A stretch of DNA of 64,000 bases from a virus (taxonomy: Duplodnaviria; Caudoviricetes). The stretch is from positions 1 through 64,000 of IMG/VR virus record IMGVR_UViG_2912874417_000004; one strand, given 5' to 3'. Position numbers and translations under genes: made by a program. The notes beneath the pieces are model-generated. The model was not told the origin of the DNA. It saw nothing but the letters and a program-made list of their open reading frames with translations, and searched no databases. Below are positions 5,097 through 63,809 of this stretch, piece by piece (the first letter of the stretch is position 1; every line of letters begins with the position of its first letter).

Positions 5097-6158
5097 TTAA
5101 TCATCCTTTCTATTTAAAATCAACATTTTATTCATTTACAGCAGAAGTCCAATTTTTACATCATCGACGTAATCAAGATCAAGTGTTAGTGTTTTACCTA
5201 TTCTCAAACCCAATGAGTTTTCCATTATCGTTTTTAATTATGATATGCCCTGTGTCAAAGTTGATATTTGCTACTTCAAACCATGAATTATTGTATAATG
5301 CTTTTCCAATCATAATAGCAATCTCCCTGTGAAAATTTGAGGTCTTTTACTGCTCTTTTAAATGCTGTTGTCTATTTCTTCAAGATGATTCCCTTCGTAT
5401 TTAGGACAATCAAAATCAGTTTCATTACCAGTCGAACCATAGTCAAATTCATTGCTTTGTCCATATGACATGGTTTCACTTTTCAAAGTCATCAAGGTTG
5501 ATTCCATAAATGCTCTTAATCCAATCTTTAATTATGTGATCCCATCCTCCAAGTAGACCATTCCATGCGAGGACATCTCTAAACACTTCTGAGCTCGTCA
5601 TTTCTAAAATTTCTTTATCCATGGAGCCGTCTTTCTTATCTAAACCCTCTCTCTGTCTTACATACTGAATAATGCTGTTTGGATACTTTTCTTCTAACAG
5701 TTTTGTGCAATCCATTATCATTTCCCCTCTCAGGATAAAATCAGAAAACCAATATTTTATTAGCTGAAATCAACTTCATCCTCAGTCACTTCGAGTTGAT
5801 TTCCATTTTCATCTTCAACGACTGCTACCATCAATTCTGGATAAAGCTCTACAAATTTATAATGTTTGCCATCCTTTTTTAATTTTAAATGTAAACCCAT
5901 ATTAATCCCTCCCTATATAAAATTGAATCCGGCTATGTTGAAAATCATTTTTCAAACTTACCTAAGTCATACATTTGGTCAAGTAATTTCATTGAGAAAT
6001 CAATGGCTTCACTATATACTGCATAACTTAATGCCCCTGTTGAGTTTAAACCATTTAAGAAATCAGCCATTTCAGCCTTCAATTTCTCTTTATTTGTCGC
6101 ATCTGGTGATACTCCCCAACTCATTTATTGCACCTCTTTTCTGATTAAAATTAGAATT

Positions 6159-6716
6159 TCATTCAGTAATATGGAAGTCAAAATTCAGGTCACTAATGTC
6201 AACATGTTTTTCTTCGCCATCAGGTAGCTTTATTTTCACTTTCGTATCAATTCCGCACGTTGTATGTTTAATTTTTTCAAGTATCTCCACTTTCTCATTG
6301 TTCAACTTCGCTCTATTAAAATTCAAAATTTGTTCGTTAAACTCTAATTTATACGAGTCCCCGATATCTTCATTAATATCACAAATGCTTATATTCAGCT
6401 CCTTCTCTTGATTCAGACTCAAGAGGTACTCCCTAACTTTTGTTGCCAACTCCAAGGTAAACCAATGAAAACTCTCTTCACACTTTCTACCCAGCTGTAT
6501 AGAAAAGGCGGCGGGCTCATCATCAAAGAAATACATTCTGTAGCCAACATAGCTATCGGTGCAATACCAGTTTCCAACCCAATAACATTTCAATCTATCT
6601 TGTTCAACACATGGTACATTATCAATTCCCAACTCATATCCTATGTCATCAGTGTCAACCCATTGTCTGTTTTGTTCTGATTTATCAATTTTATTAGCAA
6701 TATCAATTAGCTTCAT
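6159..6716 (-). CDS. Hypothetical phage protein
   Basis: 185-aa ORF with RBS; its TGA stop forms one arm of the dyad at 6146-6161. Confidence 0.7.
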   Translation of the reverse strand: MKLIDIANKIDKSEQNRQWVDTDDIGYELGIDNVPCVEQDRLKCYWVGNWYCTDSYVGYRMYFFDDEPAAFSIQLGRKCEESFHWFTLELATKVREYLLSLNQEKELNISICDINEDIGDSYKLEFNEQILNFNRAKLNNEKVEILEKIKHTTCGIDTKVKIKLPDGEEKHVDISDLNFDFHITE

Positions 6717-7792: not shown

Positions 7793-8736
7793 TTTATCCC
7801 CCTTTCTTTTAAGTACATAAACAGTTGCATATAATTGTTGTTAGTATATCCATATGTATTATGAAAATGTTCATGGCAAGAATCACACAAGGTCAACCCG
7901 TTATCAACTTCTAGTCGAATATCTTTATGCTCCATATAATTATAGATATGGTGAGCAGTTAAATATTTTTTCTTTTTAAGCCAGCATTTTTGACATGTGT
8001 AATCATCCCTCTGTAGAACCTTCCTTCTCCACTGTAAATATTCACGATACTTTCTGTCATTTATCCTCTGAGTATCAGTTTTATTCTTATTCCACCTCGG
8101 ATTACCTTCTCTAAAACGACTCTTCCTATAGCACTGCTGGCATCCCCCTCCTTGTTGAAAATAGTTCCACGCAATTTCTCCATAGTGTCCATTCTTACAT
8201 TTAAAAGCTAACTTGCTCTTTTCGTTGGCGTATTCATTTGATAAAAGCAATAAGTTTTTCTTTAAGAATTCTTCTTTAATATAATCAATGCTCAATTTTA
8301 GGCTTTCCTGATGACATTTTAAACATTTAGATCCATTATTAATTTGAGACCACAATTTTGTTGATTTATGACCATTCTTTAAACAGATCAAATCAACTTT
8401 ACCTTTTACACCTTTGTATTCTGATGTTAAAATAAACCCTCTTTCCCTCGCTTTATCCTCATAATAAGAATGGCTATGTCTTTTACATTCATATTTTTTA
8501 TTTTTGTACAACCGGTTAAATTCATCATATTTAACTGACTTAACATTTGTGCATTTCTCTTTGTCACAAGAAACTAAAACCATTTTTTCAGAAGTAAGTG
8601 GTAAATGATAATATGGAACATGAAATTTATCCCTCCAAAAGGTAAATTCATATCCTAGTGTTTGATAGTGTCTCGATGTCATAGGATTCCAGCTGACCTC
8701 AACCTTTTGTTCTTTAATAATGCCTATACATTTCAC
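7789..8736 (-). CDS. HNH endonuclease with repeated zinc-finger modules (free-standing homing-endonuclease-like)
   Basis: C-terminal RDDYTCQKC...AHHI...[14 protein letters not shown]; two CxxGH...W...CxxC repeats. Confidence 0.85.
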
Positions 8737-11989: not shown

Positions 11990-12361
11990 CTAGAACCACG
12001 CATCATCCACGCCGCTCTTCTCATCTCCTCCACTCTCAATTAAATTAATTTGATCCTCAATTTCCTCAATAAATCCCTCTAAAGCTTCTTCATTAATCAT
12101 TACTTGTCCATCCTGGACTTTGACGATTTCTTTCATTCGGTCATCCATATTTCTAAATTCTTCTGCTTGCTGCACAGTAAACATTGCTCTGTATTTCTTT
12201 ATGTATAAAAGAAAATCTTTAAGTACTCCGATCTCCCCAATTTTGTGGAGATTAAAATCTTCTTGTTCCACTTCCAGCCGAAGTAAAGTTGCTTCCTTTT
12301 CTAAAACATCAATTTCAAGCTGTTCTTTCTTTGACAACAATTCTCGCTCTTTTTGTTGCAA
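11990..12361 (-). CDS. Hypothetical coiled-coil phage protein
   Basis: RBS AGGAGGTGA with TTG start. Confidence 0.65.
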   Translation of the reverse strand: MQQKERELLSKKEQLEIDVLEKEATLLRLEVEQEDFNLHKIGEIGVLKDFLLYIKKYRAMFTVQQAEEFRNMDDRMKEIVKVQDGQVMINEEALEGFIEEIEDQINLIESGGDEKSGVDDAWF

Positions 12362-15642: not shown

Positions 15643-16057
15643 ATCTCCTTTTTGTTTTAATTTGATTCTAATAAACTCAAAAAATTAACTGCTGCAACTC
15701 TATACCTTTGGTCTTCTTCATAAGCTGCAACTTGTTTCATATGCTCCAAAAACACATCTTCAAGCCCATGTTTTTGAATAAATCCTAAACACAGACCATT
15801 CCTGAAGAGCATGTCGTCATATTTTGCTTGCAAATCTTTATAATTGTTATTGTTTATCGTCTTTTTCCTCCTTATTGTTTAGATAAAAGTCTTCTTTTAT
15901 AGAGATGTACATTCCATCAACACCCCTGTTTTTAAAACCTTTTCATGAAACAACCGCTTTGTTGGGCATAATTGTCGAGCTTTTTGAGTATTTTAAGTTG
16001 TACCCTGGCTGAGACCCTCCACTGGACAAACATCATGATCTAAGCCAGGGGTTTAAA

Positions 16058-21575: not shown

Positions 21576-22540
21576 TCCACAACTCCCTTTTCTTTATTTT
21601 TTGTTTTTATCTTTTTCATGTCTTACATCTAACTCATTCATATCATTGAGAATATGGTCAATAACAACATCACTAAACTTACCGAATGCCTTATATCCAA
21701 TTAATTTGCTTCTTAGATCTCTCCACTTTCTTGCTGCACTCATTTTGCGTCCCCTTCCTATGAAACTGTGATTTTATTAAGAGATTCCTTCAACATTTTT
21801 ATGTAGTATAGCCAATGTCGCTTTTATGCCATGAATCGTCCCAATTAGAAAATCATTGTCTATAGCATCTTTTTTTACATTATTAAAGTAATCAATTAAA
21901 TCTTTTTCAAACTGCTGCTCAATATTCTCTTTAGGAATTCTTCTATTTGACACGTAATCTATATTTTTTTCTAAGATGTCTTGTATACCGGCTATTAATT
22001 TATTATGATCCTCAAACTCTTTTTTGCTTTTTTCAAATTCCTGTATAAGCTTTAGTGCCTTACTAAAAAAGATGTTCTCTATTCTCATGTTAAGACTCCT
22101 TTGTAACTTTAATTAATCGAATTTAAAATAAAATCATCCTTTTAATGTAATGAATAAATTCCAGGTTCGCCGATGTCGCCCCCTAATGAATTAAGTGCTT
22201 TAAATTCTAATTTAACTGCCAAGTCTCCATCTGTGTTGAATTTAATTTTATCTACGCTTACCTTGACCACTTTTGTTTCTCCCTCATAGCTTGTCAATTT
22301 CATTTTCAATGGGTCTGTATGTGTTCCGTCTAAACCAAACACTTTAAAAGCTAATGAATCCTTACCAGTGTTTATTATGATTTTGTCCTCATTCTCAACA
22401 GCTTCAATGTTCTGGCAGTGAAGGACAATTTTCGTTTCCTTCGGTAAATAATTATTAAATTTTTCTTTATAAACAGAGATTTCCTTTAAAATCATATCTG
22501 CCTCTCCTTTTGCAAAATTGGTTTAAAATAAAACTTTTAT

Positions 22541-22927: not shown

Positions 22928-24738
22928 CCTTTATCCAGTTATGCGTTCAGAACTCCGTTCCAGTCATTAAATTCTTCAATATCCTCGTTCTTTTCCTTCT
23001 GTCGCAATTCATCTGCTTCTACTTTTCCAATAATTTTTTTAACTTGTTCAATTAGACTCCATTTTCTTAAACCTGAGTATATGATTAACCCCGGAACTCC
23101 AGTGCCTGCAGCTAATGTATTTTTCGTAATAAAATCCTTAACCTCCCATTCTAAAATGTGCCATCGTAAAACTTCCCCTTCTTTAACGGATAATTTAATT
23201 TCATATGTACCTCTAGCAGTTGTAATCTTCTTTGTTAATTCCATAACATCACCCTCAGTGTATTTTGAGTTCATGCGGATTTCTCCTCGTTAGATAAAGA
23301 GTGTACTCACATACAGAACGATCAACGCAAAAGCTGAATACAGTAAAGACTTGCCTGCTTTCTTGAAGATGTTTTCGTTTTTTTCTTGATCTGACTGTTT
23401 TACACCTTTGACAAATATATTGAGTAACACACCGATGACAAATGCATGAGGTAAAGTGGCATGGGTATTTTGAATGTTGTATGTATCAATAAGCAAAGGA
23501 TTTAACACGTGATTCAATCCATAATAGACAACTAGTGACATAGTCAATGCTTCAACAAAAATGAGTAACCCAACTACAATCATTGAACCTGATCCGATAA
23601 AGAAACCGTTCCAAATATCTTTTGTATTCTTATTCAATAAATATCTCTCCTTTAGTCTTTTTTAATTAGCCTCTTCCACCAAGAAGCTTTACGTTTTTCT
23701 TCCTCTTTAAAGCGTTCATAGTTTTCTTTAACTTGCTGATTCCATTTCTCTATTTTTTCTTGTGTTTGAATCGCTTTTTCAAGGCTCTCTTTATCTTCAA
23801 TTGTTTTAATTACCTTGTCAGTCTGATATGTCCATTCATTTTTTGTATTGCGCTGCCTGTCTGTTACGACTACGTATTCGTTAAACCCTGGGATATACAC
23901 TTTCCCTTCGATTTCAATTGGGTCTAAGTCAATGATCCCTTCAAAAAATGGTTGGTATTCACATTGCTGCTCAATTGGGACAAGGGCATCACACAGACCT
24001 AATGTCCAACTTTTCTTAATTACCTTCCCTTCAAATGTTGCTTTATGGCGTACCACTTATTCACCTCCTTGTAAAAGATGTTTCTTTACAAATTGAAGGA
24101 GTGTATCAACGTCTTTCGTAGTTGCCTTGTCATTGATCAAGAAGAAATCTGCCATAACATATTTTGAATAGTCGCCACTGCCATGATATTCATCTGTCAC
24201 AATTACTTTTAATTGAATATTTTCGGTTATAGGAATCAAATAAACATCTGTTCCATCTGTAATTGGAAAGTCTAAAGGGTACATATCAATTTTGTTTTCT
24301 GCTATGTATTCGTTAATTGAATATAGGATTTCTTCCCCTTCATTTTCATCAAAGCTACCAGTATAACCAGGGAGTTGTTTTCTAAAATAATCACTTAATT
24401 CATTGTTTAAATCGGTTCGCTTTCTTTCAATTTGACCTGTCATACCAACCATTAAGCCTTGTTCTTCCGCTTCACGGACAATAACCCAGTCTGCTTTTTT
24501 GAGCTTCATTTTAGTTGCCTCCCTTCTCACATTTCATTAAATGCTGCTATTGCCACCAATAGTTGCTTGGCCTCTACTTCTGCCATTTGATCTCCAATTT
24601 GCACCTTTACCCATGTATCTGGATAATCGACACTCTTAGTTGCTAGGAGTTTCAAAGTTTTTCTGTTTACTCCCCTTAATGTGAATTCGGATGTAATGTC
24701 TCTCATGGTTTTCTCCTTTTCTTTATAAAAATTGAATT

Positions 24739-25212
24739 TTAATCTAATTTCTCCAAAATAATTTTAAGATAATCTTTGAAGTCAATAGCTACAGCTTCTT
24801 CACCTTCTACACGTTTCTCATCTCTTACGCCAAAAAACCATCTATCACCTACCCACTGGCTTGCAGTTATATTATTTCTCCCGAACACATCATGGCCTTT
24901 GAAAGGATTTGCCTCTTCTATTTTCTTTAGCATAGACCTTATGTCTGTGAAATACTTAGAACGTTTTTTAAATGCATAGAAGCCAGCTTTTGTGGGGTTT
25001 TTCACCACTTCATCTTTAAAGAAGTCATATGCTTCTGTTCCTGCACGAACTCCGAAATACTCGGAATGATAAAATGAAAAACCATTCTTAATTCCGTATG
25101 TTGCTTCGAATTCATCAAAGAATTTGTTAATGTCTTCTCTTCGTTTCTTTTCAGTTTTATACCAATCGCTTTCTTGCTTAATCTCATAAATTGGTGCATC
25201 TAATGTTTCCAT
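24739..25212 (-). CDS. Hypothetical phage protein
   Basis: 157-aa ORF; its stop forms an arm of the dyad at 24726. Confidence 0.65.
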   Translation of the reverse strand: METLDAPIYEIKQESDWYKTEKKRREDINKFFDEFEATYGIKNGFSFYHSEYFGVRAGTEAYDFFKDEVVKNPTKAGFYAFKKRSKYFTDIRSMLKKIEEANPFKGHDVFGRNNITASQWVGDRWFFGVRDEKRVEGEEAVAIDFKDYLKIILEKLD

Positions 25213-25742
25213 GGCTCTATACTCCTTTTTTGTTTATCACCTAAAGACATCATTTGTTCCAATTTGTCGCATACTGCGCTTTCCCAGGAAATTTTTTATA
25301 TTTCCTTTCACTATTTCAATTCCACCACTTCACACCAAGTTCTTAGTGAACTGTCTTTTTTTAAATTTAAAGCAGCTACGCCAGCTACATCTCTATATTG
25401 AAATTCAGCAACTTTTCCATTACTGTCTAGCATTTTTCCCACATACTCTTTTCCAGCCCAAATCTCTACTGCATACTTACTCATACAACATCTCTCCATT
25501 CTCGATAAAAGTAATATTTTATTTTTACTCTTAAAGTAGTTGCAAGTAATTCATTGTCTTTTCTAATTTCATGTCTTTACAATTCTCAATGCATTCTTTC
25601 TTGATTGCTTCTCCACATTCTTTATGTACCGGAAATTCCCTATATTCTTTGTTGTCGGATATTCTTATGTAATAAACGATGTCACCAATGTGATCCTTGC
25701 ATTTAACACACTCCAATGCATCACCTCGCTTCCTATATTTCT

Positions 25743-26768: not shown

Positions 26769-27698
26769 TAAAATATCCCCTTTGTAATATAATTCTCATC
26801 TGGCACCAATACTTATCAAACAAACAATCTCATAAATCACCTTCTTTCTTTAATAAATGCTACCAATCATATAAATAATTGTTAAGAAATACTGATGATT
26901 TTGAATACTAAGTAACACAGATGTCCTTATATCAAAGGGATATTGCTCACCTTTATAAACAACTTATGTAATTTTGTAATTCCTTAGATTTAGTAAATAT
27001 CTCACCGAATTTTTTGTCTATAGTTTTCCATTGTCTTTCAGATGTTGAAGGCAACTCATTTTCAAGGTAAATGAACAACTCATCAACTCTGCTGCTAAGT
27101 TGATCCATATTTTGTGCAAGTGTTTCTTTTATTGGATCAGATATGTACACGAATCCGTCCTCCCTTATGAAAAGATAATTACTGCCTTGCCGTTGTCATT
27201 TTTTATGTATGGAGAATATGTTCGTTCTAGACAATTCCTTGACGTTCCTTCTCCCAGACTCACATTATAAATATCTCTTACTTTATGTACTTCATATGCT
27301 TGCTCTTTTGCCTGTTCAGGTGATAGCGCCTCAATTATCAAAGACGTATTTTCGTCCTTGTGATCTTTACATCTAACATAGTACCTTTTCAATAAACATC
27401 CCTTTATCCTTTCTTTTAATCCTGTTGTATTAATCCTCTTTTAGATAATGCTTGAAGAACTCGTCTAGGTTTGCAGCAATCGCTCCAGCAACTTCTGCAC
27501 AATGAGCATGACTCTTTTCTTGAGCTATTAAAAACTCAACTGCAGACTTAGCAATGGCTTTTATTTGCCCATCGTCTAATTTGCCGCTTCTTACTTCGTC
27601 TTTAATTTTTTCGGCTTCCTCTTTTAAGCTTTCTGGATAGTTCGCCACAGTCTCCACCTCTTGTATTTTATTTTTACTCTTTAAAATTGATCTTTTAA

Positions 27699-30973: not shown

Positions 30974-31681
30974 CTAACTAATAATTGAGATTGTCCCCTT
31001 TTGCTTGCCAAAATTAATTGCGTCACGCTCGGTTGCTACAAGCAAGTCCACTTTATTTCCAACAATTGCTCCTCCAGTATCACTTGCAATTGCTTTGAAC
31101 GTTTTCCCACCAATGCTTACTTCAACTATTGAATTCAAGGGAATAACACTTGGGTCGGTTGCAATAACACGATACCCTTTGTAATAGATTGATTGAGTGA
31201 CATCAACACCTGTTCTAGTTGTTCCTGTGCATCCTTCTTGGCAGTGGGCAATATAAGCACTCAGCTTAACCTGGATGGTTTTCTTTGCGGCCGGTGACTT
31301 GTTTTCTTTTTTGCGTGTGTTTATTTTATTTTTATTCTTAAAAGTTGTATGCTTTGCCGTCTCACCTCCTTTCATGTGCCTTTTCTTACTTTGCTTAGGT
31401 TTAATGAGTTTTGCTGAGATAATCTTCTCTGTATGCCTTTTTAGTTGTTGTTCTTTGTTCGTTTGAGCTTTTTTAAATAGCCGTAAGACAATATTCTCAC
31501 TTGATGGGATCCTAATCTGTCTAGGCTTCTTATAAAATGATTCTTTTATTGAGTCTTCATTTCCCTCTGTTTTATGTAAATGTTGCTCATAACTTATGTA
31601 AGAAAAAGTGGCTAAGGGAATTAAAATCATCATACCATAAACGGACTTGAAAATGTGTTCTTTTATTTTATTTTTATTCAT
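30974..31681 (-). CDS. yorM: Membrane-anchored 3D-domain cell-wall protein
   Basis: N-terminal TM; IATDPSVIPL, ASDTGGAIVGNKVDL. Confidence 0.85.
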   Translation of the reverse strand: MNKNKIKEHIFKSVYGMMILIPLATFSYISYEQHLHKTEGNEDSIKESFYKKPRQIRIPSSENIVLRLFKKAQTNKEQQLKRHTEKIISAKLIKPKQSKKRHMKGGETAKHTTFKNKNKINTRKKENKSPAAKKTIQVKLSAYIAHCQEGCTGTTRTGVDVTQSIYYKGYRVIATDPSVIPLNSIVEVSIGGKTFKAIASDTGGAIVGNKVDLLVATERDAINFGKQKGTISIIS

Positions 31682-38528: not shown

Positions 38529-40043
38529 TTATCCTGCTTTAATATTCAATTTTTCAACTGTAATTAATTCATTATCGAGATTTGTTGTGAAACAATCCTT
38601 GATCCGCATATTTCCCATATTTATATGGGAGAAGACTTTTACTTTGTCGTACTCATTTCCCCTGTTTTTAAACACGTGTGTAACAAAATTTGGCTCTGGG
38701 TAAAATCCTGCTTTTAAGATTGGCTCAATTGCATCCTTCTCTTTTTTACTTAAAGGAAGAATAATCATTGCACCATCAGTCTTATCGGCAATAGCTTTAC
38801 TTCCTCTCAGGTAAGATGCGTCTATTACTTGTCCTTTTTGCCATGCCTCTTTCCAATCACCATTTAACTGAGTAGCACTCATCATATAAACATCGTATTT
38901 GTTACATAAGCCCTTTAACTTATCAGACATAAGCAAAAGGATTTGATCCTCTCTTAGGTTGACCCCGCTTTTTTTACTCATCTCCGAAAAAATTGTCACT
39001 GATGAGTGAATATAATCAAAGTAAATGTACTCAACATTATTTTTAATTACATTCTTTTCAATCGTTCTCTCGATCTCTTGGATATTGAAATCAGGAAGAT
39101 GCTCGAACCAAATATTAGACTGCTGAAGTACTTTAGCAGCTTTGCGCACAAGCTGTTTTTCTTGCTCATTGATCGTATTTCTAAGTATTTTTTTCTCTTC
39201 TACGCCACTAATATAGGCAAGTGCCAAGCTTTGCAATTCCTCTGCCATCATTTCCGTTGAGATGACCGTGGAACTTTTATTCCAAGGGTTTTTCACCCAT
39301 TCCTTCTTTTTAAGGTCGTACAACTCAGTTGCACTTAATCGACAAGCATCAGCAACCATATTCCTTGTTTTACCTCCGCCTGTAATACTTGATCGAATGT
39401 AAAACTTTTTCTTACGAGACCCACGGAAAATTGACGTAAGCATTTCGCTATTTAATGGTACTCCAATATCTGGCGACTCCTCAAAAGAATCTAATAACTC
39501 ATCAATGCCTTCTCCACCTTGAATTCCCACACTTTCAGATGAGGTTCGAAACTTCTCTTTTACATCTACAATCTTCATTTCATAAGCTGCTAGAATTTCG
39601 TCAATCGATTTCTTATCAAACTGTTCCTGCATTTTTTCTTGTTCTTTTGGATCAATTATAGTTTCATCATAAATCTCTTTGATATCGAAACCTAAACCAC
39701 TCATCTCTCTGAGCAAACTAAACTTTTTTAGTCTTTTGTAATGGTAATCAAAGTTTTCGACTACAGCCAGCTCTTGAATTCTTTCGATGTATTCAAGGCC
39801 ATTGTTATCATGAAAAATCTTATATTGGATGTCGTAATCTTTTAGATATCCATCTATCTCAACCTCATTCAATACTTCCGTCCCTTGCTGGAATAAGTTA
39901 CTCATAGCAAAAAACAGTATTGAGTGAAATCTTGAAGGGAAATCATCCGAAGTAATCCTATACTTGTTGCTTTCAGACAAGATTGTGGGATCCTTGAGTA
40001 TGCTTCCTAAAACTTGTATAATTGCTTTTTTGTCTTGTAGCAA
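38529..40043 (-). CDS. yorI: Replicative DnaB-like helicase
   Basis: GGGKT Walker A, STEM, FDYI, ATQLN and GSKAIADK motifs. Confidence 0.92.
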   Translation of the reverse strand: MLQDKKAIIQVLGSILKDPTILSESNKYRITSDDFPSRFHSILFFAMSNLFQQGTEVLNEVEIDGYLKDYDIQYKIFHDNNGLEYIERIQELAVVENFDYHYKRLKKFSLLREMSGLGFDIKEIYDETIIDPKEQEKMQEQFDKKSIDEILAAYEMKIVDVKEKFRTSSESVGIQGGEGIDELLDSFEESPDIGVPLNSEMLTSIFRGSRKKKFYIRSSITGGGKTRNMVADACRLSATELYDLKKKEWVKNPWNKSSTVISTEMMAEELQSLALAYISGVEEKKILRNTINEQEKQLVRKAAKVLQQSNIWFEHLPDFNIQEIERTIEKNVIKNNVEYIYFDYIHSSVTIFSEMSKKSGVNLREDQILLLMSDKLKGLCNKYDVYMMSATQLNGDWKEAWQKGQVIDASYLRGSKAIADKTDGAMIILPLSKKEKDAIEPILKAGFYPEPNFVTHVFKNRGNEYDKVKVFSHINMGNMRIKDCFTTNLDNELITVEKLNIKAG

Positions 40044-47394: not shown

Positions 47395-47567
47395 TTAATA
47401 ACCACTCCTTTTTATTTTTGTTTTATTCTTAAAACTCAAATCACATAGGTAACTCACATTGTTATCACCCCCTTATAATCAACTTCATCTTTTTCAATTA
47501 CTTTTTCACATTCGCTGCAAAAGCAAGTAAACATTTTCACTCATCCTCTTTCTGTAAAATATCGTTT

Positions 47568-48008
47568 TTATTTAGACTCTATAAGCTCAGGATCTTCATA
47601 AATGTTGCCGATGACTTCTAAATCGACATTTGCTACAAATACAGTCATCATACCTTTATTGATTCGCTTGAATCTAAAACCTGGTACCTCTTTTGTCCAA
47701 TAAACTCCATCTGATGAATAATCAGCTACCTCTTCCTGCCAAAAAACTTCTAATAACTCATTTGAATATCTACGATGATTCCTTACAACGTCCCCCTCGT
47801 AAATCTCACGACCGTTTTTGTCCTTCAATCCGGTGTATTGCCCAACTGTTTCCGGCCTGACACTGTAAGCAAATGGAATACCAGCTTTATTAGAGATATA
47901 AGAACCAGATTCAATACCCATGCTCTTGATTCTTTGCTTAATGATTGATAAATTGCCGTAATACCATTCTCCGTTGATGCCCATTCCTCGAAACTTAATT
48001 TCCCTCAT
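47568..48008 (-). CDS. YopX-family protein
   Basis: MREIKFRG...GQYTGLKDKNGREIYEGD...EVIGNIYEDPEL. Confidence 0.88.
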   Translation of the reverse strand: MREIKFRGMGINGEWYYGNLSIIKQRIKSMGIESGSYISNKAGIPFAYSVRPETVGQYTGLKDKNGREIYEGDVVRNHRRYSNELLEVFWQEEVADYSSDGVYWTKEVPGFRFKRINKGMMTVFVANVDLEVIGNIYEDPELIESK

Positions 48009-48533
48009 TCTCCTTACCTCCCGTCCATTGGTCTAACATTTTCAAAATCCTCTATTTCATCAACATATTCAACGTATTCTATTTCGATATTTCCCGCGGC
48101 ATCTTCATGCACCCATACTTCCATTTCGGCTACCGCTTTCACTTTCGCTTTGTATCTCATTATCATTACCTCCATATTCAATTTACTTTTATCCTTATAA
48201 AATCTCTGTTTTATCTTCATCGAAGTTATCTCCCCTCACTAACCACCATACACTTATTTTATTTTTATCAAATAAATCAATTATGTAAGACTCGTACATG
48301 TCATCCCAATAAGGATCAGTTCTCGCTATGTATTTCTTTACTCTTCCGTTCTCCTCAATCTTGAAGGTTTGCCCCTTTTGAATATCAGTAAACTTTTTCT
48401 TTCTCCAGATTCCTCTAATCAACACATCTACTTCTTTTACCTCAACTTTTTGCCGCTGCATAACATTCCTCCTTTTTGATTTTCGTGTATCAAGCCTGTA
48501 CAATATTCAAAAAACCCTAAAGGATGATGAAAC

Positions 48534-50090: not shown

Positions 50091-50465
50091 TCTCTCCGTT
50101 ACATAATTCCTTAGTGACTCGCCATTACACACCAAATGAAAATTTAGTACATGGATCAATTAGATAATTTATCGTTAAAATAACTATTTTATTTTTATTC
50201 ATAAATAATCACCAAATGTCATAGCCTACAAAATCATTCAAAAAAATTCGTCATTCCCTCATCCTCTTCTACTGTCAATCCATATTCATCAAGCCTGCTT
50301 AAATAATCTTCTCGTTCTTGTTTGATCATTTTTTCACCTCTTTTTTATTTTTTTCAATTCTTTTTTGATTTTCATATTGCTTTTCACTCTTTTATTAATA
50401 GATGCGTGTCATACACATGCCATCTAAGAGAGATAGGACATTTTTGTCTCGGGAGGTGAAATGCA

Positions 50466-51118: not shown

Positions 51119-51478
51119 TTCGTTTCCTCCTAATAACTGATTAAAAATTATCTTTTATCTAGACTTGTTCAGCTCTCTCTATCATCTCTACAAGCTCTTG
51201 TGCCTTGTTTAATTTTCTGCTGTAGTCTTCAACTTCTTTCTTCGCGATTGCCATTTTATCAAATAAAACGCGCCAGTTTCCATTAGGATTTCTGCTGAAT
51301 GATTTAACAATTAGGCCATTAAACCAGACGTCTAAAATTAGTCTGCTCTCACTTGTTTCAGGTTTATGACCAAAGGCAGCATCTTTATTATTACCGGCAT
51401 AAACAATTTGTTTATTTATTTCATATAGATAATTTTCAGTTTCTTTTGTAACTACATATGTATTCATTTTCCCACCCC

Positions 51479-52003: not shown

Positions 52004-52329
52004 TCGTTTCCTCCTATTCTGTTTAAAATCACGATTTTATGTAGACTAAACCTTTTTCTTGCTGTCATGCGTTCACACTTTTGGGTAAAATACTAATCTG
52101 TTAACATTAATAACTCATCAACTTTATAATTGTATTCACCGTATTCACCCGATCTCCATTTAACACCTACAGTGCCTTGATTTGTCACCCACAATATAAT
52201 TCCCATTTCCCCATTTTCATGCCATCTTACTTGCTGCCCTTTCTGATAACCAAGCATGTTTCCACCCCTTTCTTAAAAAGCATTTTAATTTAACTTTAAT
52301 GTGTATTGCCTTGAGAAAATCCCCTTTAA

Positions 52330-52990: not shown

Positions 52991-53177
52991 TTATTTTATT
53001 TTTATCCTTTAAATATTTATATGTATTCCATCCGCAGCCATCAAATATGCTTATATCCGCTCCAAGATGCCATCTAAACCAAACTAAGTTAAACCAAGCT
53101 GTATCAATTATGTGCTTTAAATAACCTATATGCCTTCCTCCTTACAATGAAATAATCCTTTTATTTTGTTTTTTTTA

Positions 53178-54065: not shown

Positions 54066-54811
54066 TGAGTTTTTTGAAATTGACTATCGGTTCTCACCCT
54101 TTCTTTAAAACAGTCTTTTTATCATTCTTTATCACTTAAATATTCTAAATACCTAAGATGTTCAAAGAGTTCTTCATCTCTATATGCTTGAATTGCATCT
54201 TCAAGTTTAAACGAGTGTTTTATTTTTCTGCTCGTGGCTTCTGTAAATAACCTAGTGATTTTACCTTCATCTAGATAACTATGATAGCCACCACCATTAC
54301 AAAGAAATCGAAGTATATTCTTTAAATACCGATCAGATATCTGATCAACTGTGTAGGTATTATAATTTTTATCTATCCAGTCGTATTCATTTCTCATATT
54401 TTTGGTTATCCCAGTCCTCCTTTTGATTAAAACTTCAATTTTACCTATCTCCTAAAATGGTTTTACACCACTCGTTTATATCTGTTGAAATCTGATCAAT
54501 TTCAAACAACTTATCCTTTAGCATTTCTTCACCGTCTGCTCCATTAAAGCTTGCCAATCGTTCAAGTTGCTTTGAATAGTGCTTAATCTTTTCAATGCTT
54601 AATTCTAAATCCAAGGAACCGTTTTTAAGTTCAACCTCACCCATGTACTCCATTGTTGAACGAGTCCCGCATATTCCACAAAACGCTCTCTGTCTCTTAT
54701 AAAATTTATCAATAATAGTGGTATGGCCGCAGCCAGTTCTGCAAATGTGCTTGTAATGTGTCAAAAAATCTCTTCCTTTCTATTCCAATGAAATTTTACT
54801 TTTAATCTAAT

Positions 54812-57010
54812 TCATCTTGTTTCCTGGGCCACAGTTTCTTTTTCAAAATCGTTTCTCAATTTGATAATGGAGGTTGATTTTAAATACCCTCTGTCCTTTG
54901 TCTTAGCCCATGCGAAAAATCTATTGTGTAAAGGAGTATAAAGGCTTCCTGTGTTAACCATATGCTCATGTTTGTTGCTGATCTTATGCTTTAATCCCCT
55001 CATTTGTTTCCAAAAGTTATAGTAAGGGAGCTTAAGTTTTGTCATGAAGCCGGCAGCATCTTCAATTACATAACCCTCTTCCTCAATTGAAAAATCTTGT
55101 GACACGTCCAGATACCATCTATAGAAATCTGTCCATTTACTAAACTCTGCAACTTGTTTTTTACACTCAATGTTTAGATGCTCGGCTACAGCTTTCAATT
55201 CCCAATAAGGAAGTTTTGTATACGCAACCTGCCTTTTAACAATATCTAAAAGCACCAGTTTATCTTTGTCGTATTCAATGATATGCGGGTCTTTTTCTGG
55301 AAATATTACTTCAAAAACGAATGAAACATTGTTAAGCTTCAGGTAAGTTTTGATAAAAGACACTTGATTTTCATTAAAAGATTTAAAAAACAGTTCTTCG
55401 ACCCATTTCGCATGTTCATTTGATATTTGTGACGTAAAGGATTTAGAAGTGAATACCAACTGATCTGACAAAGAGTCATACCCTACAGTTCCTAAATATC
55501 CATTTGCCTTATCGAAGACTGTTACTGGAAATTTCATCGTATCTACGAGATGATGCATTCTTGTTTCAGATCGTTCTCCAATGTTGAAAAATTTATCATA
55601 GCTTCTGCTTACAATTTCATTGCTCTCAGTGTTAATAAACAAACCTCTTGCCTTAATATTTGTTTCATCCCACTTTTTCTTTCTAAATGCTTGCTTTGTA
55701 AAATTAAATGATGAGATATTGTTTGGCATTTTATTCTCTTGCACATATTCATGACCACGTAAGTGGGAAATCAATTCATCAATTGTTCCAACAGTTGCGC
55801 TGTTACTCGGTACTTCACTTGAAATTTGTTTAAAGACTTTATTCTTCACTTCATGCGTTTCAATTCCGTTCTCAGACAGTGTAACGACTCTAAGATGCCC
55901 TCCTCTTTCCACTTGCCCTTCCAGGTTATATGATCTATCTGCTGCTACCACAGGTAGACGGTACATGTTTCTATGTCCATGAATCTGTACAACATTTTGA
56001 CCTGCAGTATTATTTGCAAATTCATAATCAATATCGTCTGAATAATCTCCAACTCCATTGATGAATTGTGTTGTTGCAGTCATCAAAAGATTTTCTGGTA
56101 CGGTTGAAACTCCGCCATGGGTTACAATGTATGTAGTGTTTTTATATGTAAAGTAAGCTAACTGATGAAACTTCCTGGCCAACTGTCTAATGTCTTTTTT
56201 ATCAATGTTGGATTGTTCGATTTCTGGCTTAGTTTTGTTGTTAAATGTGTTGCTAGGTGTTTCTTCATCATTCCCATACATATTGATATATCTATCATGA
56301 TTTCCTTCGAGAATAATCACATTTTTATAATCTTTAATTTTGATCATGAATTCTAACAGCTGTGCATTTTCAATACCTCTGTCGATAAGATCTCCTACAA
56401 AAATGTATAGTTCATTTTCATTCAAATCACCGTTTAAGTACTCTTGAAGCACAGTATTACACCCATGAACATCTCCGAAAATATGGATCTTTTTATAATC
56501 GTCAAAACATCTCGGCTTATAAGTCATCGTGGTTTCAAACTCATCTGGTTTTAGAACAGTTACCCAAGATGGCACTTTTTCTGTTGTCATTCTTTCATAA
56601 ATATTTAGAATACTGCTTTCAGGAACATGTTTATGTTCAGCCCTCATTTTATTTCTTTTTAAGATTCTCCGAACATCCACATCAGAAAAATCAACTACAT
56701 ATACACGGTATCTATATTTTTGAGCTAGTGGCTTATATCTTGAAATCATGCTTTGCTTTGAATGAGTTGCATCGATAATTGTGAATTCACCGCGATCCAT
56801 CCTATCTTCAAGCAACTTTAGTAATAAATCCCACACCTTGTTGTCGTGTTTTGGAGAGATTTCATATTTTCCACTTTTGTTTAATACAGGTGACTGAAAC
56901 AGCAGTCTAATGTTGTCTGCAGAAAGAGTGTACTGCTCAAGTCCATTTTCCTTAATCCAAGTTGATTTCCCCACTCCTGGACAGCCTCTTAATAACACTA
57001 ATGTTCTCAA
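54812..57010 (-). CDS. Trifunctional RNA-repair enzyme: polynucleotide kinase + metallophosphoesterase + Rnl1-type RNA ligase
   Basis: Kinase: GCPGVGKST and IIDAT. Phosphoesterase: GDVHG, GDLIDRG, GNHD, HGG, HGH. Ligase: KFFN, DKANG, FEV, EGYVI, KLK. Confidence 0.88.
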   Translation of the reverse strand: MRTLVLLRGCPGVGKSTWIKENGLEQYTLSADNIRLLFQSPVLNKSGKYEISPKHDNKVWDLLLKLLEDRMDRGEFTIIDATHSKQSMISRYKPLAQKYRYRVYVVDFSDVDVRRILKRNKMRAEHKHVPESSILNIYERMTTEKVPSWVTVLKPDEFETTMTYKPRCFDDYKKIHIFGDVHGCNTVLQEYLNGDLNENELYIFVGDLIDRGIENAQLLEFMIKIKDYKNVIILEGNHDRYINMYGNDEETPSNTFNNKTKPEIEQSNIDKKDIRQLARKFHQLAYFTYKNTTYIVTHGGVSTVPENLLMTATTQFINGVGDYSDDIDYEFANNTAGQNVVQIHGHRNMYRLPVVAADRSYNLEGQVERGGHLRVVTLSENGIETHEVKNKVFKQISSEVPSNSATVGTIDELISHLRGHEYVQENKMPNNISSFNFTKQAFRKKKWDETNIKARGLFINTESNEIVSRSYDKFFNIGERSETRMHHLVDTMKFPVTVFDKANGYLGTVGYDSLSDQLVFTSKSFTSQISNEHAKWVEELFFKSFNENQVSFIKTYLKLNNVSFVFEVIFPEKDPHIIEYDKDKLVLLDIVKRQVAYTKLPYWELKAVAEHLNIECKKQVAEFSKWTDFYRWYLDVSQDFSIEEEGYVIEDAAGFMTKLKLPYYNFWKQMRGLKHKISNKHEHMVNTGSLYTPLHNRFFAWAKTKDRGYLKSTSIIKLRNDFEKETVAQETR

Positions 57011-57058
57011 ATTCTATCAACCTTTCTGATTTTTATTTGTTTAAAATGCATCTTTTAA

Positions 57059-58261: not shown

Positions 58262-58554
58262 TACTTTTCCTCCTTATTTAAATTCGAATAAAACTTACAT
58301 TTTATTTTTATCCTTAATATATTCATGCTGATTCACAACATCACGAAGTATGTATTGTATTTCCTCTAAATTGTCTTTAACAAAGTCCAGGTCTCCTATT
58401 GCCATTCTGATTTCATTATTCTCTATGCTGCGCAAAGATCTTTCGCATGATGCTAAGAGCTTTTCATATTTCCTTAAAACCATAGTTCTTATTTGATCGT
58501 TAATTGGTTCATTAATCAATAATTAAAGCTATCTCCTTTCCTTATTCTAATCCG

Positions 58555-59275: not shown

Positions 59276-59334
59276 CGAACCTACGTTCCCTTTTTTGTTG
59301 ACTTAATTATAACCTTTTACCTAGTTAGTGGCAA
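59276..59334 (-). promoter_or_regulatory. SigA promoter with downstream LexA/DinR box
   Basis: TTGCCA-17 bp-TATAAT (59334-59306); CGAAC-ctac-GTTCC at 59276-59289. Confidence 0.7.
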
Positions 59335-59378
59335 ATCTTTTTTCTTTCATTTAAAAACTTGGAAAGAATTGATATAGT

Positions 59379-59633
59379 ATGATAAGCAATACTATATCAG
59401 GAGGTTGTCCGATGCTTGAGGTTGAAATCGGACAATGTTTGATATCCATTCTCCTTGAACGTAGAGGAATGTCCCTAGGGCAACTTTCGAACCTAACAGG
59501 CATCAGTAAGCAAAGGTTAAGTGATTACGCTAATGGCGTTAGACCTTCTATGAATATAAAAACAGCGAGAATCATTGCTATTGCCCTAAACTGTTCGATT
59601 GAAGACCTCTATGAATGGAAAATCAAACATTGA
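59379..59633 (+). CDS. yopS: XRE-family HTH regulator
   Basis: HTH pattern ending in ALNCSIEDLY; convergent with yopR. Confidence 0.8.
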   Translation: MISNTISGGCPMLEVEIGQCLISILLERRGMSLGQLSNLTGISKQRLSDYANGVRPSMNIKTARIIAIALNCSIEDLYEWKIKH

Positions 59634-59853: not shown

Positions 59854-60837
59854 TTAAGAATTAGTCTCAATTACTTCAGACTTGATACAATATTTTTCTA
59901 AGTTCTCCATATTCACTACTTTCCTCAGTGTTTGTGAATTAAACTCCGCGTCTTCATTCAAGAACCCATATTGTCGAGTTATTTGCTTATAATCAGGTAC
60001 TTTTAATTCACCCTTCTCTTTATATATCGCATACGCCATGTTGAGCTTTCCTGAATTGATAAGATTTTTAGGTGTAAAGAAGGGTTCTTCTAAAAATTTT
60101 TGAAACTGACTAAAAGAACGATGAACTAAAAATTTGTCAGCTTTCATACTCTGATTAGAGCTCTTATATTTTAGCCTAAAAATATTTTCGCTTTTAACTA
60201 ATGTGGCAAATTTGTTTTTAAGGCTACTATCTGGCGAACCATTGCTAAGATGATATGTTCTTTGGTCATTAGCACGCTTAAGTAACTCATAACATTTATC
60301 GCTTACAGTAATTATTCTTACACCATGTTTATCATCTACTAGCTTTACCTTGTTATCATCGAGTAAATCGTCACCTGTTAAATTCAGTAACTCTGAATGC
60401 TGATAACCATCTATACCTTCATAAATAGCCTGTATCATGGCCTTATCCTGATAATTAATCATAAAATCAACATACTCTTCTACTTCTTTATTGGTGAATA
60501 GTGTTTTTTTGTTTTTATCTATAAACTGCTTTAAGTCACCATCCTGTATCTGATACACTTTGTTGATGTTACTGTTTGCCAAGCCATTTTCCATTGCCCA
60601 GGTTGTGTATTGTCCAATTACAGCTCGTGCTCCTCTTAATGAGTCTATAGATTTGCTATCCAAATCGAAAAATAACGTACGCAGCTCTTCCAAAGAAAAA
60701 TTAAATATGTCTTTTTGAAGTATTTTTTCTGTAGCTGAGAAATCCCTTAGCCTTAGCCAATAATGGTTTCTTGTTGCTTCACTTTCGTATTTCTCTAAAA
60801 ACTTTTCCTTCAATTCAGCATTATATATTTCACTCAT
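59854..60837 (-). CDS. yopR: MrpR/SroF master repressor (catalytically degenerate integrase fold)
   Basis: Integrase-like fold with [11 protein letters not shown] and TPKNLINSG where R and HxxR would be; last gene of the operon. Confidence 0.85.
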
Positions 60838-60857
60838 ATTAAATTCTCCTTTAGGCT

Positions 60858-62207
60858 TTAAACAACAGCAATTTCATCATAAAACATTCGCTTAAGTTTC
60901 TTCTTCATAATATTCTTTAGTTGATTCTCATTATTTTGTCTTCCTAATTCTTCAAACACTCTTCCGCTTTTACTAAAGTCAATCGTATTAAGGATATTTT
61001 CAAGCTTGTTTAGTTCTACATTGTTTTCCTTCATCTTCTTGGCCAAATAAACATAACCGTAAAACATTACGTTATGATTAATGTATGATTGCTTTCTAAT
61101 GGACGATAAATCATCTTCAAGAAATTCGTCTGGGAAGGCATAAAAAAGGTTATCAAAAAAGTCTACCAAGTATTTCGCAATTTTCAACGCATCTTTTCGA
61201 GATTTCAGCTCAAATGCATCGTCTACAGCTTCTGATAAAGTATAATATGTTACAAGGAAATTGCTATCGATACCAATTTCACTTTGTGGGCTTATTTTAT
61301 TTTTAAGTTCACTTTTAAATTTCAGCTGCTCGACAACGGTTGAAGAATACCGTTTTTGTCCCAATTCTTCAATTCTGGATTTTTCAACTGGGTTTATGGT
61401 ATTCATTTGAGCAAAGTGAACCTTAGCCTTTTCTTCATCGTAATTGAGCACATTTAAAATGAATGGTTGATCTAATTCAGGGACTTCAGCAATGGCCTTA
61501 ACAATACCTGAAATTCGATGATATCCATCAAGAGCATCTAATAAGGTTCCTCGTGTTACAGTGAGGGTTTGGTCGCTTGGATCATATTCAACTTCTTCAT
61601 CACCATCAGATGTTCCAAGACGAGCGTTAAAAGTTAACATTGATACAATTAAATCGCCTTTAATAAACAATTCTTTGATCTCGTCAACTGATTTAGGGTT
61701 TGTTTTAGGTACAGGGATAAGGCTGCCCTTAATGTATTTTCCTTCACGCTGAGTATTGTAATTGTACTGCAGGATGGAGCTATTATATAACTCACTAAGT
61801 TCCTTGGCAGTAATGGAAGTGACATAGTTATCCTCTTTAATTTTAATCACATTTTTGAACTTGTATGGTAGCTTAACTACTTCTTCACCGGCGAATACTC
61901 TCCCACCTTCAAGCTCTTTTGCCAATCTGGTTGGAAAATAATTTGAGGGATCTAAAGCTGGAGCCCCAAGAATTGAATACATCTCTTTTGAAACAATGTA
62001 CACTTCTTTTTCGTTTAAACGCTGTACGTTGTTATCATTATTATTTAAAATTTCTTGGATATAACCAGGGAGTGCCTTGTATTTGTCCGCCATTGTGGCT
62101 TTTAATTCCTTCACCATATTGGAATCACTTTTAATATCAATAAGATTTTTCTCTATTTCAGTTTTTAACTTATAAAGTTTATCCGTTGTTAACAAAACTT
62201 CAGACAC
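60858..62207 (-). CDS. yopQ: YopQ/SroE, ParB/DndB-like (DGQHR-type) protein
   Basis: TQR, LDGYHR and FAQMN motifs; position in the operon. Confidence 0.8.
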
Positions 62208-62283
62208 ATTATCACCTCACATAATCATATTAAATTTATCATTATTTTCATAAGCAAGTAAAGCTTTTATATGACTATTTGTA

Positions 62284-63342
62284 TCATTTGTTCAAAAACA
62301 TTTTAAGTTTATTCTGTATATACATGTCTGATTTTAAAAAGAATTCTTTATATTGCTCTAAGGCAACATCGTCTAAAAAGGACATGTCTTCTTTTTGATC
62401 AACCAAAACCCCTGGATCTTGAGAATAATCCCTTTCATTGACTAAATAATGATCATTTAAAGTATTGATATTGCTGTGGCCAGAGAACGCTGCCACTTTT
62501 TTAATATCACCATTAACGCTGTAAGAAAAGTTTGTTGCAGTATTGCGTAAACTATGCGGAGTTATCTTTCTTTCTTTGGGAATACCCATAACTCTACATA
62601 CGCGATTCCACATATCCTGTATTGAATCAACTGTTAACTTATGAAATAACAGTTCATGCTCCCCATACTCTTGCTTTAACAGCAACAACTCTTCATAAAA
62701 AGCAGTGGAAATCCCAACTGGCCTAGCCTTTTTTTGCTTAGTTTTTTTAAAGTTGACGAGATAGCATTGGTGCTTTTCTGAATAAGTAATATCATCCCAC
62801 CCAACTCTAAGCACCTCTGATTTACGCCCACCAGTACGTGCACTAAACAAAATAAACATCTTTTTCATTAATCTGTTCTGACGCTCAGTAACATAAGCTG
62901 CCTCAGCAAACTCATCAGCTTCCGATATTCCTTCAAAAGACCCTGCTGGGTTCTTTTCTGTCGGAAGAGGTCTAAAATTAAATACAGATGAATCACACTC
63001 ATGTTCAGATTCAAGATACTTAATCATGCTTTTCAGTGCGGCAATCTTATTGTTAATTGTTGAATTGGAGTTGCTTTTATTTTTAGCCAAATGGGTTCGA
63101 TAATCATACAGGTCGCTCTTCTTGATCGCCAGGTCACTCTCAGTTAAATATTCAATATCCTTGGCAGCATAGTGGTTGAAAAACTCTCTTATATGCCTTT
63201 CATACGTGGCTCTAGTATTAGACTTTTCAATTTCTCCAGTTTCTCGATCCCTGTTTCTTAAATCTAATTCATCAAACCACCTATTTATGTTATTGTATAT
63301 TGAATAATCCCTTAGTGTTGACGCTTTCTTTTGAGCTTCCAT
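62284..63342 (-). CDS. yopP: YopP/SroD tyrosine recombinase
   Basis: TGGRKSE, KTKQK, PHSLR, SGHS and DHY give the full R-K-H-R-H-Y set. Confidence 0.88.
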   Translation of the reverse strand: MEAQKKASTLRDYSIYNNINRWFDELDLRNRDRETGEIEKSNTRATYERHIREFFNHYAAKDIEYLTESDLAIKKSDLYDYRTHLAKNKSNSNSTINNKIAALKSMIKYLESEHECDSSVFNFRPLPTEKNPAGSFEGISEADEFAEAAYVTERQNRLMKKMFILFSARTGGRKSEVLRVGWDDITYSEKHQCYLVNFKKTKQKKARPVGISTAFYEELLLLKQEYGEHELLFHKLTVDSIQDMWNRVCRVMGIPKERKITPHSLRNTATNFSYSVNGDIKKVAAFSGHSNINTLNDHYLVNERDYSQDPGVLVDQKEDMSFLDDVALEQYKEFFLKSDMYIQNKLKMFLNK

Positions 63343-63351
63343 AATGACACC

Positions 63352-63516
63352 TCATATCATTTTTTTCATTAAGTATTGATCAAATTCTTTCCATGCAACA
63401 ATCCATTCATTTTCCCCTTCAATATTACTCAGCAGCATTAAATTGGCGTTACAGATTTCAATTTGCTTTAGCATGTCGTATTCTTTAAGAGCGTTAATTA
63501 AAATGTCTGTATTCAT
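63352..63516 (-). CDS. 54-aa protein in the sro operon
   Basis: Not in the track: MNTDILINALKEYDMLKQIEICNANLMLLSNIEGENEWIVAWKEFDQYLMKKMI. Confidence 0.6.
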   Translation of the reverse strand: MNTDILINALKEYDMLKQIEICNANLMLLSNIEGENEWIVAWKEFDQYLMKKMI

Positions 63517-63554
63517 TTTATCACACCTAATTTATTTTTATCCTATAATAAAAT

Positions 63555-63809
63555 TCAGTTTAGGACATTTACCCTTTCGTCCTTACAGACGTTTATAATT
63601 GGCATCCCCGTCAATTCCTCATAAAGCTCCTCTTCGAACCCAACCCATTCATCACTTGTCGCTTCTCTTCGTAAGAACTCATTATAAGCAACTGCTATCT
63701 CAGGCTGCTCTAGAAACTTCAAAACGATCATATGCTTTTTCCAAACTTTAGCCTTGTTTTCTTCTGTATAATATTTATTATTCATTTTATTTTTACTCCT
63801 TAAATACAT
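63555..63809 (-). CDS. yopM: YopM-like protein (likely start MNNKYY)
   Basis: MNNKYYTEENKAKVWKKHMIVLKFLEQP matches my recollection of SPbeta YopM; position at the head of the sro operon. Confidence 0.65.
   Translation of the reverse strand: MYLRSKNKMNNKYYTEENKAKVWKKHMIVLKFLEQPEIAVAYNEFLRREATSDEWVGFEEELYEELTGMPIINVCKDERVNVLN

Follow-up and report, generated by a model that had tools for sequence, protein, structure and literature searches.

YopP/SroD of an SPbeta-like phage is a putative Xer-like tyrosine recombinase and a possible reader of dif-like dyads at gene junctions

Introduction

Why does the repression operon of a temperate phage contain a tyrosine recombinase with an apparently complete active site, when phages of this type have SprA as their integrase, and on which DNA might such a protein act? 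These questions are raised by yopP (sroD) in IMG/VR record IMGVR_UViG_2912874417_000004. The stretch of DNA analyzed here (hereafter, the window) is the first 64 kb (positions 1 to 64,000) of the 130,193-bp genome of an SPbeta-like phage. A first-pass annotation had regarded the active site of YopP as implying a DNA substrate, and had named an inverted repeat, TRAAA-N6-TTTYA (hereafter, the dyad), as the obvious candidate. We found that YopP is a putative catalytically competent, Xer-like recombinase and that the dyad is a repeated phage element of dif-like layout; YopP is tentatively proposed as its reader.

SPbeta and phi3T serve as models of arbitrium signalling; of the three proteins in their repression module, SroD is the one understood least. 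It was reportedly named an auxiliary repressor, alongside the repressors SroE and SroF, by Brady and colleagues in Cell Host Microbe in 2023, a role that the first-pass annotation did not mention. In the literature that we found on SroD/YopP, no catalytic activity, DNA site or link to a genome-wide dyad was described. YopP was assigned an XerC-type integrase domain within the yopM-R operon (PMC8612738), for which the newer name is sroA-F (PMC10769878). In SPbeta-like phages it belongs to the core genes, with lysogen transcription in one microarray data set; two RNA-seq sets contained lysogen transcripts of yopR, yopQ and yokI only (bioRxiv 10.1101/2021.11.22.469490).

Results

YopP is predicted to be a catalytically competent tyrosine recombinase

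The open reading frame (ORF) called as yopP in the first-pass annotation (Table 1) was recovered unchanged, and all five motifs quoted there were found in its 352-residue product: TGGRKSE (170–176, with R173), KTKQK (200–204, followed by K205), HSLR (263–266), SGH (287–289) and DHY (297–299). A small correction concerns the catalytic beta-hairpin lysine, which is either K202 or K205 of the KTKQKK run, the family consensus being DKGxK. YopP matched the Pfam family Phage_integrase (PF00589) with an E-value of 1.9e-14 and 54.2 bits (curated cut-off 27.1), and Pfam also placed a SAM-like core-binding domain at its N-terminus. In phmmer alignments to XerA (4a8e) and XerD (1a0p), R173, the K-x-R hairpin, H263-x-x-R266 and H289 fell on catalytic positions, and Y299 was offset by one residue from the Xer tyrosine. 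The AlphaFold2 model (predicted local distance difference test score of 90) had a two-domain fold, core-binding and catalytic, whose top Foldseek matches in PDB were XerA, XerH-difH, Tn1549 Int, Cre, IntI and lambda Int (E 1e-9 to 1e-6 for XerA, XerH, Tn1549 Int, Cre and lambda Int). Neither YopP nor YopR matched any defence system in PADLOC. Sequence and model thus suggest that YopP/SroD is a putative Xer-like tyrosine recombinase that is catalytically competent.

A whole-library search with YopP returned 270 representative clusters at E < 1e-10, and 81 members were aligned. R173 and H263 were kept in all 81 members, K202 in 80, and a tyrosine at 298–300 in all 81 when one column of slack was allowed; position 289 was H in 80 members and W in one, and position 266 (Arg II) was R in 53 and K in 28. 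This family-wide retention of the catalytic set argues for chemistry by YopP, which we consider highly probable. The earlier step from an intact active site to a DNA substrate therefore appeared reasonable, as the same set is lost in the paralogous YopR/MrpR, whose gene is the next but one from yopP, with yopQ in between. That loss, also noted in the first-pass annotation, was seen in an hhalign comparison (a weak alignment) with Q/H at Arg I and no HxxR in YopR, and, according to its crystal-structure paper, MrpR has the fold of a recombinase but no longer the function (PMC10516654).

Since the YopR family, selected for DNA binding only, lost its catalytic residues, and YopP keeps R, H, H/W and Tyr invariant (K202 in 80 of 81) at only 25–40% identity, including in phages that carry the gene away from any sro operon, it is unlikely that YopP is merely an auxiliary repressor binding DNA or protein, with no chemistry in vivo and catalytic residues retained to contact phosphates or because an integrase ancestor is recent. 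Such a repressor would nevertheless fit the place of yopP in a repressor operon with which it is transcribed (see below), the reported description by Brady and colleagues in 2023, and the lysine at Arg II in 28 of the 81 members. Besides, the neighbouring YopR demonstrates that this fold can turn into a pure repressor (PMC10516654).

At 77% identity to phi3T_95, the YopP of the window is of the phi3T type. It is 32% identical to the YopP of SPbeta itself, in which Arg II is Lys and the second hairpin Lys is Gln. Near-identical YopP proteins are present among Bacillus velezensis entries. A 99% identical YopP was also found on a 133-kb contig labelled Streptomyces sp. (NZ_JBHVTC010000023.1), which is probably Bacillus phage or prophage DNA within a Streptomyces-labelled assembly.

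A dif-like dyad is repeated at gene junctions

The dyad occurs 25 times in the window, compared with 2.8 expected, and 36 times in the whole genome. Counts in the window at other spacings were 0–4, except for N10 (13) and N12 (7). The secondary peak, TRAAA-N10-TTTYA, amounts to 19 in the genome, compared with about 4 at other spacings. De novo searches returned the dyad as the top palindrome in the window phage, E3, Perkons and PBC2, and its TGAAA variant as the top one in KKP_3916. When half-sites were pooled, a consensus of about 11 bp emerged, T-Y-T-n-n-A-TAAAA in SPbeta-like phages, which makes the full palindrome approximately TYTnnATAAAA-N6-TTTTATnnARA. The outer half-site positions are different in PBC2, Perkons and KKP_3916. 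Arms of about 11 bp around a 6-bp centre, a dif-like 11-6-11 layout, are the geometry of Xer/dif core sites (two arms of about 11 bp around 6–8 bp), and YopP may bind them. The 6-bp spacer is different at every one of the 36 sites.

Twenty-eight of the 36 dyads lie in gene junctions, 24 of these between genes on the same strand. Among 147 junction dyads from seven phages, 59 start no more than 3 nt from the upstream stop codon, and the distance to the ribosome-binding site in the window varies from 3 to 24 nt. Pairing of the arms did not reveal any site-specific extension further out, the dyads being A/T palindromes of 16–28 bp. A stable RNA hairpin was rejected as an explanation, as the arms give 5–7 A/U pairs without extension. 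The dyad is a strongly conserved and apparently undescribed element.

A site for SroF/MrpR was likewise rejected, because its box has a different sequence and overlaps a dyad arm only occasionally (at 25506, 50176 and 58289). SroF of phi3T binds, as a monomer, an asymmetric box of 26 bp, and boxes of the phi3T type, ATTTTATTTTTAYTCTWAA, constitute a separate repeat family with about 25 copies in the genome. Far fewer matches to this box were found in SPbeta, consistent with a different repressor specificity; the SPbeta element SPBRE is likely AAAAAATATGTATA. In SPbeta, the sro operon lies between two annotated perfect palindromes, TTGTAATGCATTACAA upstream of yopM and GTAAACCATATGGTTTAC in the interval from yopR to yopS (SPbeta 4163-4178 and 8701-8718). 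Both are distinct from the dyad and from SPBRE, and may be operators for small helix-turn-helix (HTH) proteins.

Table 1. Features of the window (the dyad is TRAAA-N6-TTTYA)
Feature	Position	Strand	Remarks
dyad	5115..5130
dyad	5939..5954		edge of 199-bp block common to phi3T
dyad	6146..6161		opposite edge of the 199-bp block
dyad	8575..8590
dyad	12302..12317
dyad	15884..15899		homology-block end
dyad	21761..21776
dyad	22129..22144		16-mer identical in SPbeta; block edge
dyad	22524..22539		16-mer identical in SPbeta and phi3T; phi3T flanks at random-level identity
dyad	24726..24741		16-mer identical in SPbeta and phi3T
dyad	25506..25521		overlaps phi3T-type SroF box
dyad	27682..27697		16-mer identical in SPbeta and phi3T
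dyad	31533..31548
dyad	38701..38716		within a gene
dyad	47555..47570		16-mer identical in SPbeta
dyad	48198..48213
dyad	50176..50191		overlaps SroF box; replacement boundary in relative X13
dyad	51142..51157		replacement boundary in X13
dyad	52024..52039		boundary of 954-bp insertion in X13
dyad	53148..53163
dyad	54106..54121		26-nt island retained in X13 between replaced genes
dyad	54428..54443		16-mer identical in SPbeta
dyad	54789..54804		boundary of Pnkp/RNA-ligase gene
dyad	57042..57057		other boundary of Pnkp/RNA-ligase gene; 16-mer identical in SPbeta and phi3T
dyad	58289..58304		overlaps SroF box; start of 7.8-kb phi3T-shared block; X13 boundary
yopP/sroD	62284..63342	minus	352-aa putative tyrosine recombinase, ATG start; R173, K202/K205, H263, R266, H289, Y299
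yopQ/sroE	60858..62207	minus	DndB/ParB-like, 449 aa; Pfam PF14072 E 2.6e-16; PADLOC DndB 7e-6
yopR/sroF/mrpR	59854..60837	minus	catalytically degenerate recombinase-fold master repressor; Pfam MrpR_N_CB and MrpR_C_cat, hhalign, PMC10516654
small ORF, yopO/sroC position	63352..63516	minus	directly upstream of yopP; synteny with SPbeta and phi3T
yopS-like HTH regulator	59379..59633	plus	divergent from sro operon; Pfam HTH_26/HTH_3
RNA-seq library contig	59881..63786	minus	depth 104 (run X3); covers yopR-yopQ-yopP and upstream small genes
SroF-type boxes, ATTTTATTTTTAYTCTWAA	starts 2725, 12801, 12890, 21024, 25511, 25772, 31318, 31660, 37179, 42572, 50181, 52988, 58294, 58584, 59799	plus
Pnkp/Rnl-like gene	54812..57010	minus	732-aa kinase, phosphoesterase and T4-type RNA ligase fusion

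The dyad accompanies YopP-like genes across phages

Dyads were counted per genome, with the same pattern read backwards as a control (Table 2); metagenomic contigs encoding distant family members were too short for such counts. Enrichment was observed in 14 of the 15 tested carriers of YopP-like genes, although weakly in one of the 14, and in none of the seven phages lacking a close YopP relative (SPO1, phi105, SPP1, 0305phi8-36, G, VPE25 and MMB025). Conversely, YopP-like genes encoding the catalytic set were present in all dyad-rich phages, which is the co-occurrence that the first-pass annotation had asked about. A host genome carrying such a prophage contained 180 dyads in 4.5 Mb (control 95), about 1/7 of the phage density. 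The dyad is a phage feature and not a host feature. The replication module was also considered as the co-occurring partner of the dyad; this candidate was weakened because VPE25, whose YorL polymerase (38% identity) is closer to that of the window phage than is the YorL of E3, has neither YopP, YopR nor the dyad.

Table 2. Dyad counts in phage genomes
Phage	Dyads	Control	Spacing or enrichment
SPbeta	36		N6 peak
phi3T	34	5	N6 peak
Geobacillus E3	42	10	N6 peak
Psychrobacillus Perkons	52	6	N6 peak
B. cereus PBC2	25	2	N6 peak
Alicyclobacillus KKP_3916	14	1	N6 peak
Sophrita	30	9	N6 peak
Kirov	28	4	N6 peak
BcoS-136	26	12	N6 peak
Mammaliicoccus phi116	38	5	N6 peak
FADO	34	2	N6 peak
Staphylococcus phage SPbeta-like	20	10	weak
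Brevibacillus Sundance	7	5	not enriched
SPO1	1	0	absent
phi105	0	0	absent
SPP1	0	2	absent
0305phi8-36	0	2	absent
G	44	32	not enriched
VPE25	9	6	not enriched
MMB025	0	1	absent

This distribution also bears on whether the dyads need any recombinase at all. Located after one stop codon and before the next ribosome-binding site in co-directional genes, they could be signals for expression or DNA structure (pause, processing or standby) that act as RNA or through the host machinery, and their occurrence at mosaic edges, where the enrichment over other junctions is modest (see below), could then reflect no more than conserved intergenic sequence serving as microhomology. We consider this very unlikely. 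The dyads are missing from the same-host phages SPO1, SPP1 and phi105, and the host chromosome contains few of them; their distance to the next ribosome-binding site is variable, and a stem of 5–7 all-A/U pairs is too weak to fold, especially, we would expect, in E3 if it grows at the high temperatures of its host. In addition, the variation of the outer arms from phage to phage suggests a reader that the phages themselves encode.

In PBC2, KKP_3916, Sophrita, Kirov, BcoS-136, FADO and Sundance, the yopP-like and yopR-like genes are unlinked. In these seven phages, the two were always found as a pair, even tens of kilobases apart, and a DndB-like gene was not detected, which hints that YopP and YopR are a functional pair.

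Dyads often mark the edges of replaced genes

Homology-block ends situated at gene junctions landed on dyad junctions in 11 of 49 cases against phi3T and 13 of 44 against SPbeta, dyad junctions representing 14% of all junctions. Blocks 5945-6143 and 22129-22541 have a dyad at each end. A further example is the gene for a kinase, phosphoesterase and RNA ligase fusion (Pnkp/Rnl-like; Table 1), which is missing from SPbeta and phi3T and is flanked exactly by dyads 54789 and 57042. When the window was compared with a relative (X13, 95–99% identical), 7 of 14 indel or replacement boundaries in the 50–58.4 kb region were within 10 bp of a dyad. Moreover, nine dyads are present as identical 16-mers, spacer included, at collinear positions in SPbeta, and in most of these pairs at least one flank is at random-sequence identity. 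Identical spacers were seen only at the same junction of related phages. Dyads thus often mark the edges of replaced genes.

Is YopP the reader of the dyads?

Calling the dyad the obvious substrate of YopP proved too strong. The proposal gained indirect support from the element itself, which is real, specific for N6, of 11-6-11 layout, enriched in 14 of 15 carriers and often located at replacement edges. Several observations weigh against YopP as its reader or against the exchange that it might catalyze. The same co-occurrence with the dyad is seen for YopR-like genes, and hence does not distinguish YopP. Brevibacillus phage Sundance (NC_028749) has intact YopP-like (7508-8356) and YopR-like (118759-119727) genes and the whole common core, but its dyads are not enriched, and a de novo search of this phage did not detect an enriched palindrome of any 5-mer. 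The SPbeta-type and phi3T-type YopP proteins, 32% identical, share one dyad consensus, whereas the equally diverged SroF proteins of these two phages recognize different boxes. There is no dyad within 1.5 kb of yopP in the window phage, whose sro operon is dyad-free, and most phages have none within 1.5 kb of either yopP or yopR. One third of the family, including the YopP of SPbeta, has Lys at Arg II. Finally, 22–30% of junction block ends are on dyad junctions compared with 14% expected, implying that most mosaic edges do not use them.

An active YopP may instead work on one or a few dedicated sites, for example in cyclisation or multimer resolution of a terminally redundant genome, a role that Cre/lox plays in P1, with the dyads serving another factor (the YopR-like protein of non-SPbeta phages, an HU-like protein, or a small protein missed by tblastn). 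This alternative, which is possible though we doubt it, agrees with the conserved catalytic set, with the retention of YopP by Sundance in the absence of dyads, and with the single dyad consensus despite 32% YopP identity; both YopR-like and HU-like genes are common to all dyad-rich phages. However, HU-type proteins are usually not sequence-specific, the SroF proteins of SPbeta and phi3T bind other, asymmetric boxes as monomers, and a private core site near yopP was sought in the 58.8–64 kb region with only weak, unconvincing inverted repeats as a result.

YopP is still the leading candidate for reader of the 11-6-11 dyads, because of the dyad geometry, the restriction of dyads to these phages, the phage-specific outer arms, the lack of any other conserved sequence-specific candidate, and the assignment of SroF to other boxes. 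We put forward this link, with the binding, cleavage and exchange that it would involve, as plausible but tentative, given that YopR co-occurs with the dyads equally well, that Sundance is an exception, and that the two YopP types are only 32% identical.

The first-pass annotation had further pictured excision or inversion between the dyads at 54789 and 57042, and the spacer sequences speak against this. Exchange partners of tyrosine recombinases usually need an identical overlap (spacer). Since all spacers differ among the 36 sites, a reaction that excises or inverts the DNA between two dyads should not run to completion in one genome, and recombination between dyads within one genome is judged unlikely from the sequences.

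The sro operon and its expression

The DNA of the sro region is approximately 74% identical to phi3T and SPbeta. On the minus strand, small yopM/N/O-like ORFs are followed by yopP, yopQ and yopR; thus, the location of YopP is that of the SroD group, upstream of the DndB-like yopQ and the MrpR-like yopR. Beyond yopR are a divergent HTH gene and then a long series of co-directional early and accessory genes. The yopP-yopQ-yopR trio is also present in E3, Perkons, Staphylococcus phage SPbeta-like and Mammaliicoccus phi116.

In an RNA-seq library from a lysogen, the contig over 59881-63786 had a depth of 104, compared with about 5 over lytic genes at 50–58 kb. These contigs, which by nature cannot prove one single transcript, indicate that yopP is co-transcribed with yopQ and yopR in the lysogen. 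The same contigs covered 58646-59565 (two small minus-strand ORFs and the yopS-like HTH gene) at a depth of 104 as well, equal to the sro operon. Raw RNA reads (run X23) provided hardly any coverage of the stretch and did not yield RNA ends.

Discussion

How could a recombinase with dozens of sites contribute to lysogeny? As a working model, YopP, encoded in and transcribed with the sro lysogeny operon, would target the dyads that follow the stop codons of lytic and accessory genes, and a YopP dimer would clamp each of them. In the lysogen, clamped dyads might aid repression, for example as a roadblock within early operons; this would fit the auxiliary-repressor role that SroD is said to have. 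As each dyad has its own spacer, strand exchange could be completed only when both partners are the same junction, in two copies of the genome or in two related phages, and flanking genes would then be swapped in register. Such same-junction exchange between two genomes is possible and fits the edge data, as does ordinary recombination at conserved intergenic sequence.

The tested dyad-bearing members have Bacillus, Geobacillus, Psychrobacillus, Alicyclobacillus, Mammaliicoccus and, weakly, Staphylococcus hosts. A broader, rather improbable extension is that these large siphophages of Bacillota form a supergroup with a dedicated system for modular gene exchange, in which YopP, perhaps together with its dead paralogue YopR, would have as substrates the dif-like dyads that follow accessory genes. 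Each 6-bp spacer would label its junction like an address, allowing exchange only between the same junction of co-resident phages or prophages. If SroD is active with dozens of sites, the repression module would double as a machine for DNA processing, and the striking gene-by-gene mosaicism of these phages would gain a mechanism that is site-specific. Should the reader be another factor, an element enriched in 14 of 15 carriers from six host genera (weakly in one) would still call for explanation.

Comparison with known systems

The closest counterparts of YopP are the SroD/YopP proteins of phi3T and SPbeta, which occupy the same operon slot between a yopO-like gene and yopQ, within the same trio of YopP, DndB-like YopQ and YopR (Brady et al. 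2021, PMC8612738). MrpR/YopR/SroF has a paralogous fold, is encoded in the same operon and strictly co-occurs with YopP in the phages tested; unlike YopP, it has lost the catalytic residues, and it binds a long asymmetric box (26 bp in phi3T) as a monomer and not the dyad.

Integrons (IntI/attC) and the Rci shufflon resemble the proposed arrangement in that one tyrosine recombinase serves many sites, each at the 3' end of a gene. However, integrons have an attI/Pc platform and folded single-strand attC sites with extrahelical bases, whereas the dyads are short double-strand palindromes with no attI-like promoter platform beside yopP, and neither inverted segments nor circular cassettes were seen. 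The PeSL elements of T4-type phages and the boundary sequences of lambdoid phages are, similar to the dyads, short conserved intergenic elements flanking exchangeable genes; these are thought to use homologous or illegitimate recombination without a dedicated site-specific recombinase, in contrast to the system proposed here.

The best structural matches to the YopP model were among the single-recombinase Xer systems, XerH/difH, XerA/dif and XerS/difSL. In these, the site is an 11-6-11 palindrome, A/T-rich in its inner arms and with a centre of 6 bp, on which a homodimer acts; the layout of the dyad is of this kind. Xer systems have one site per replicon and function in dimer resolution, whereas the window phage has 36 sites and these phages carry 14–52 junction sites per genome, each with its own spacer.

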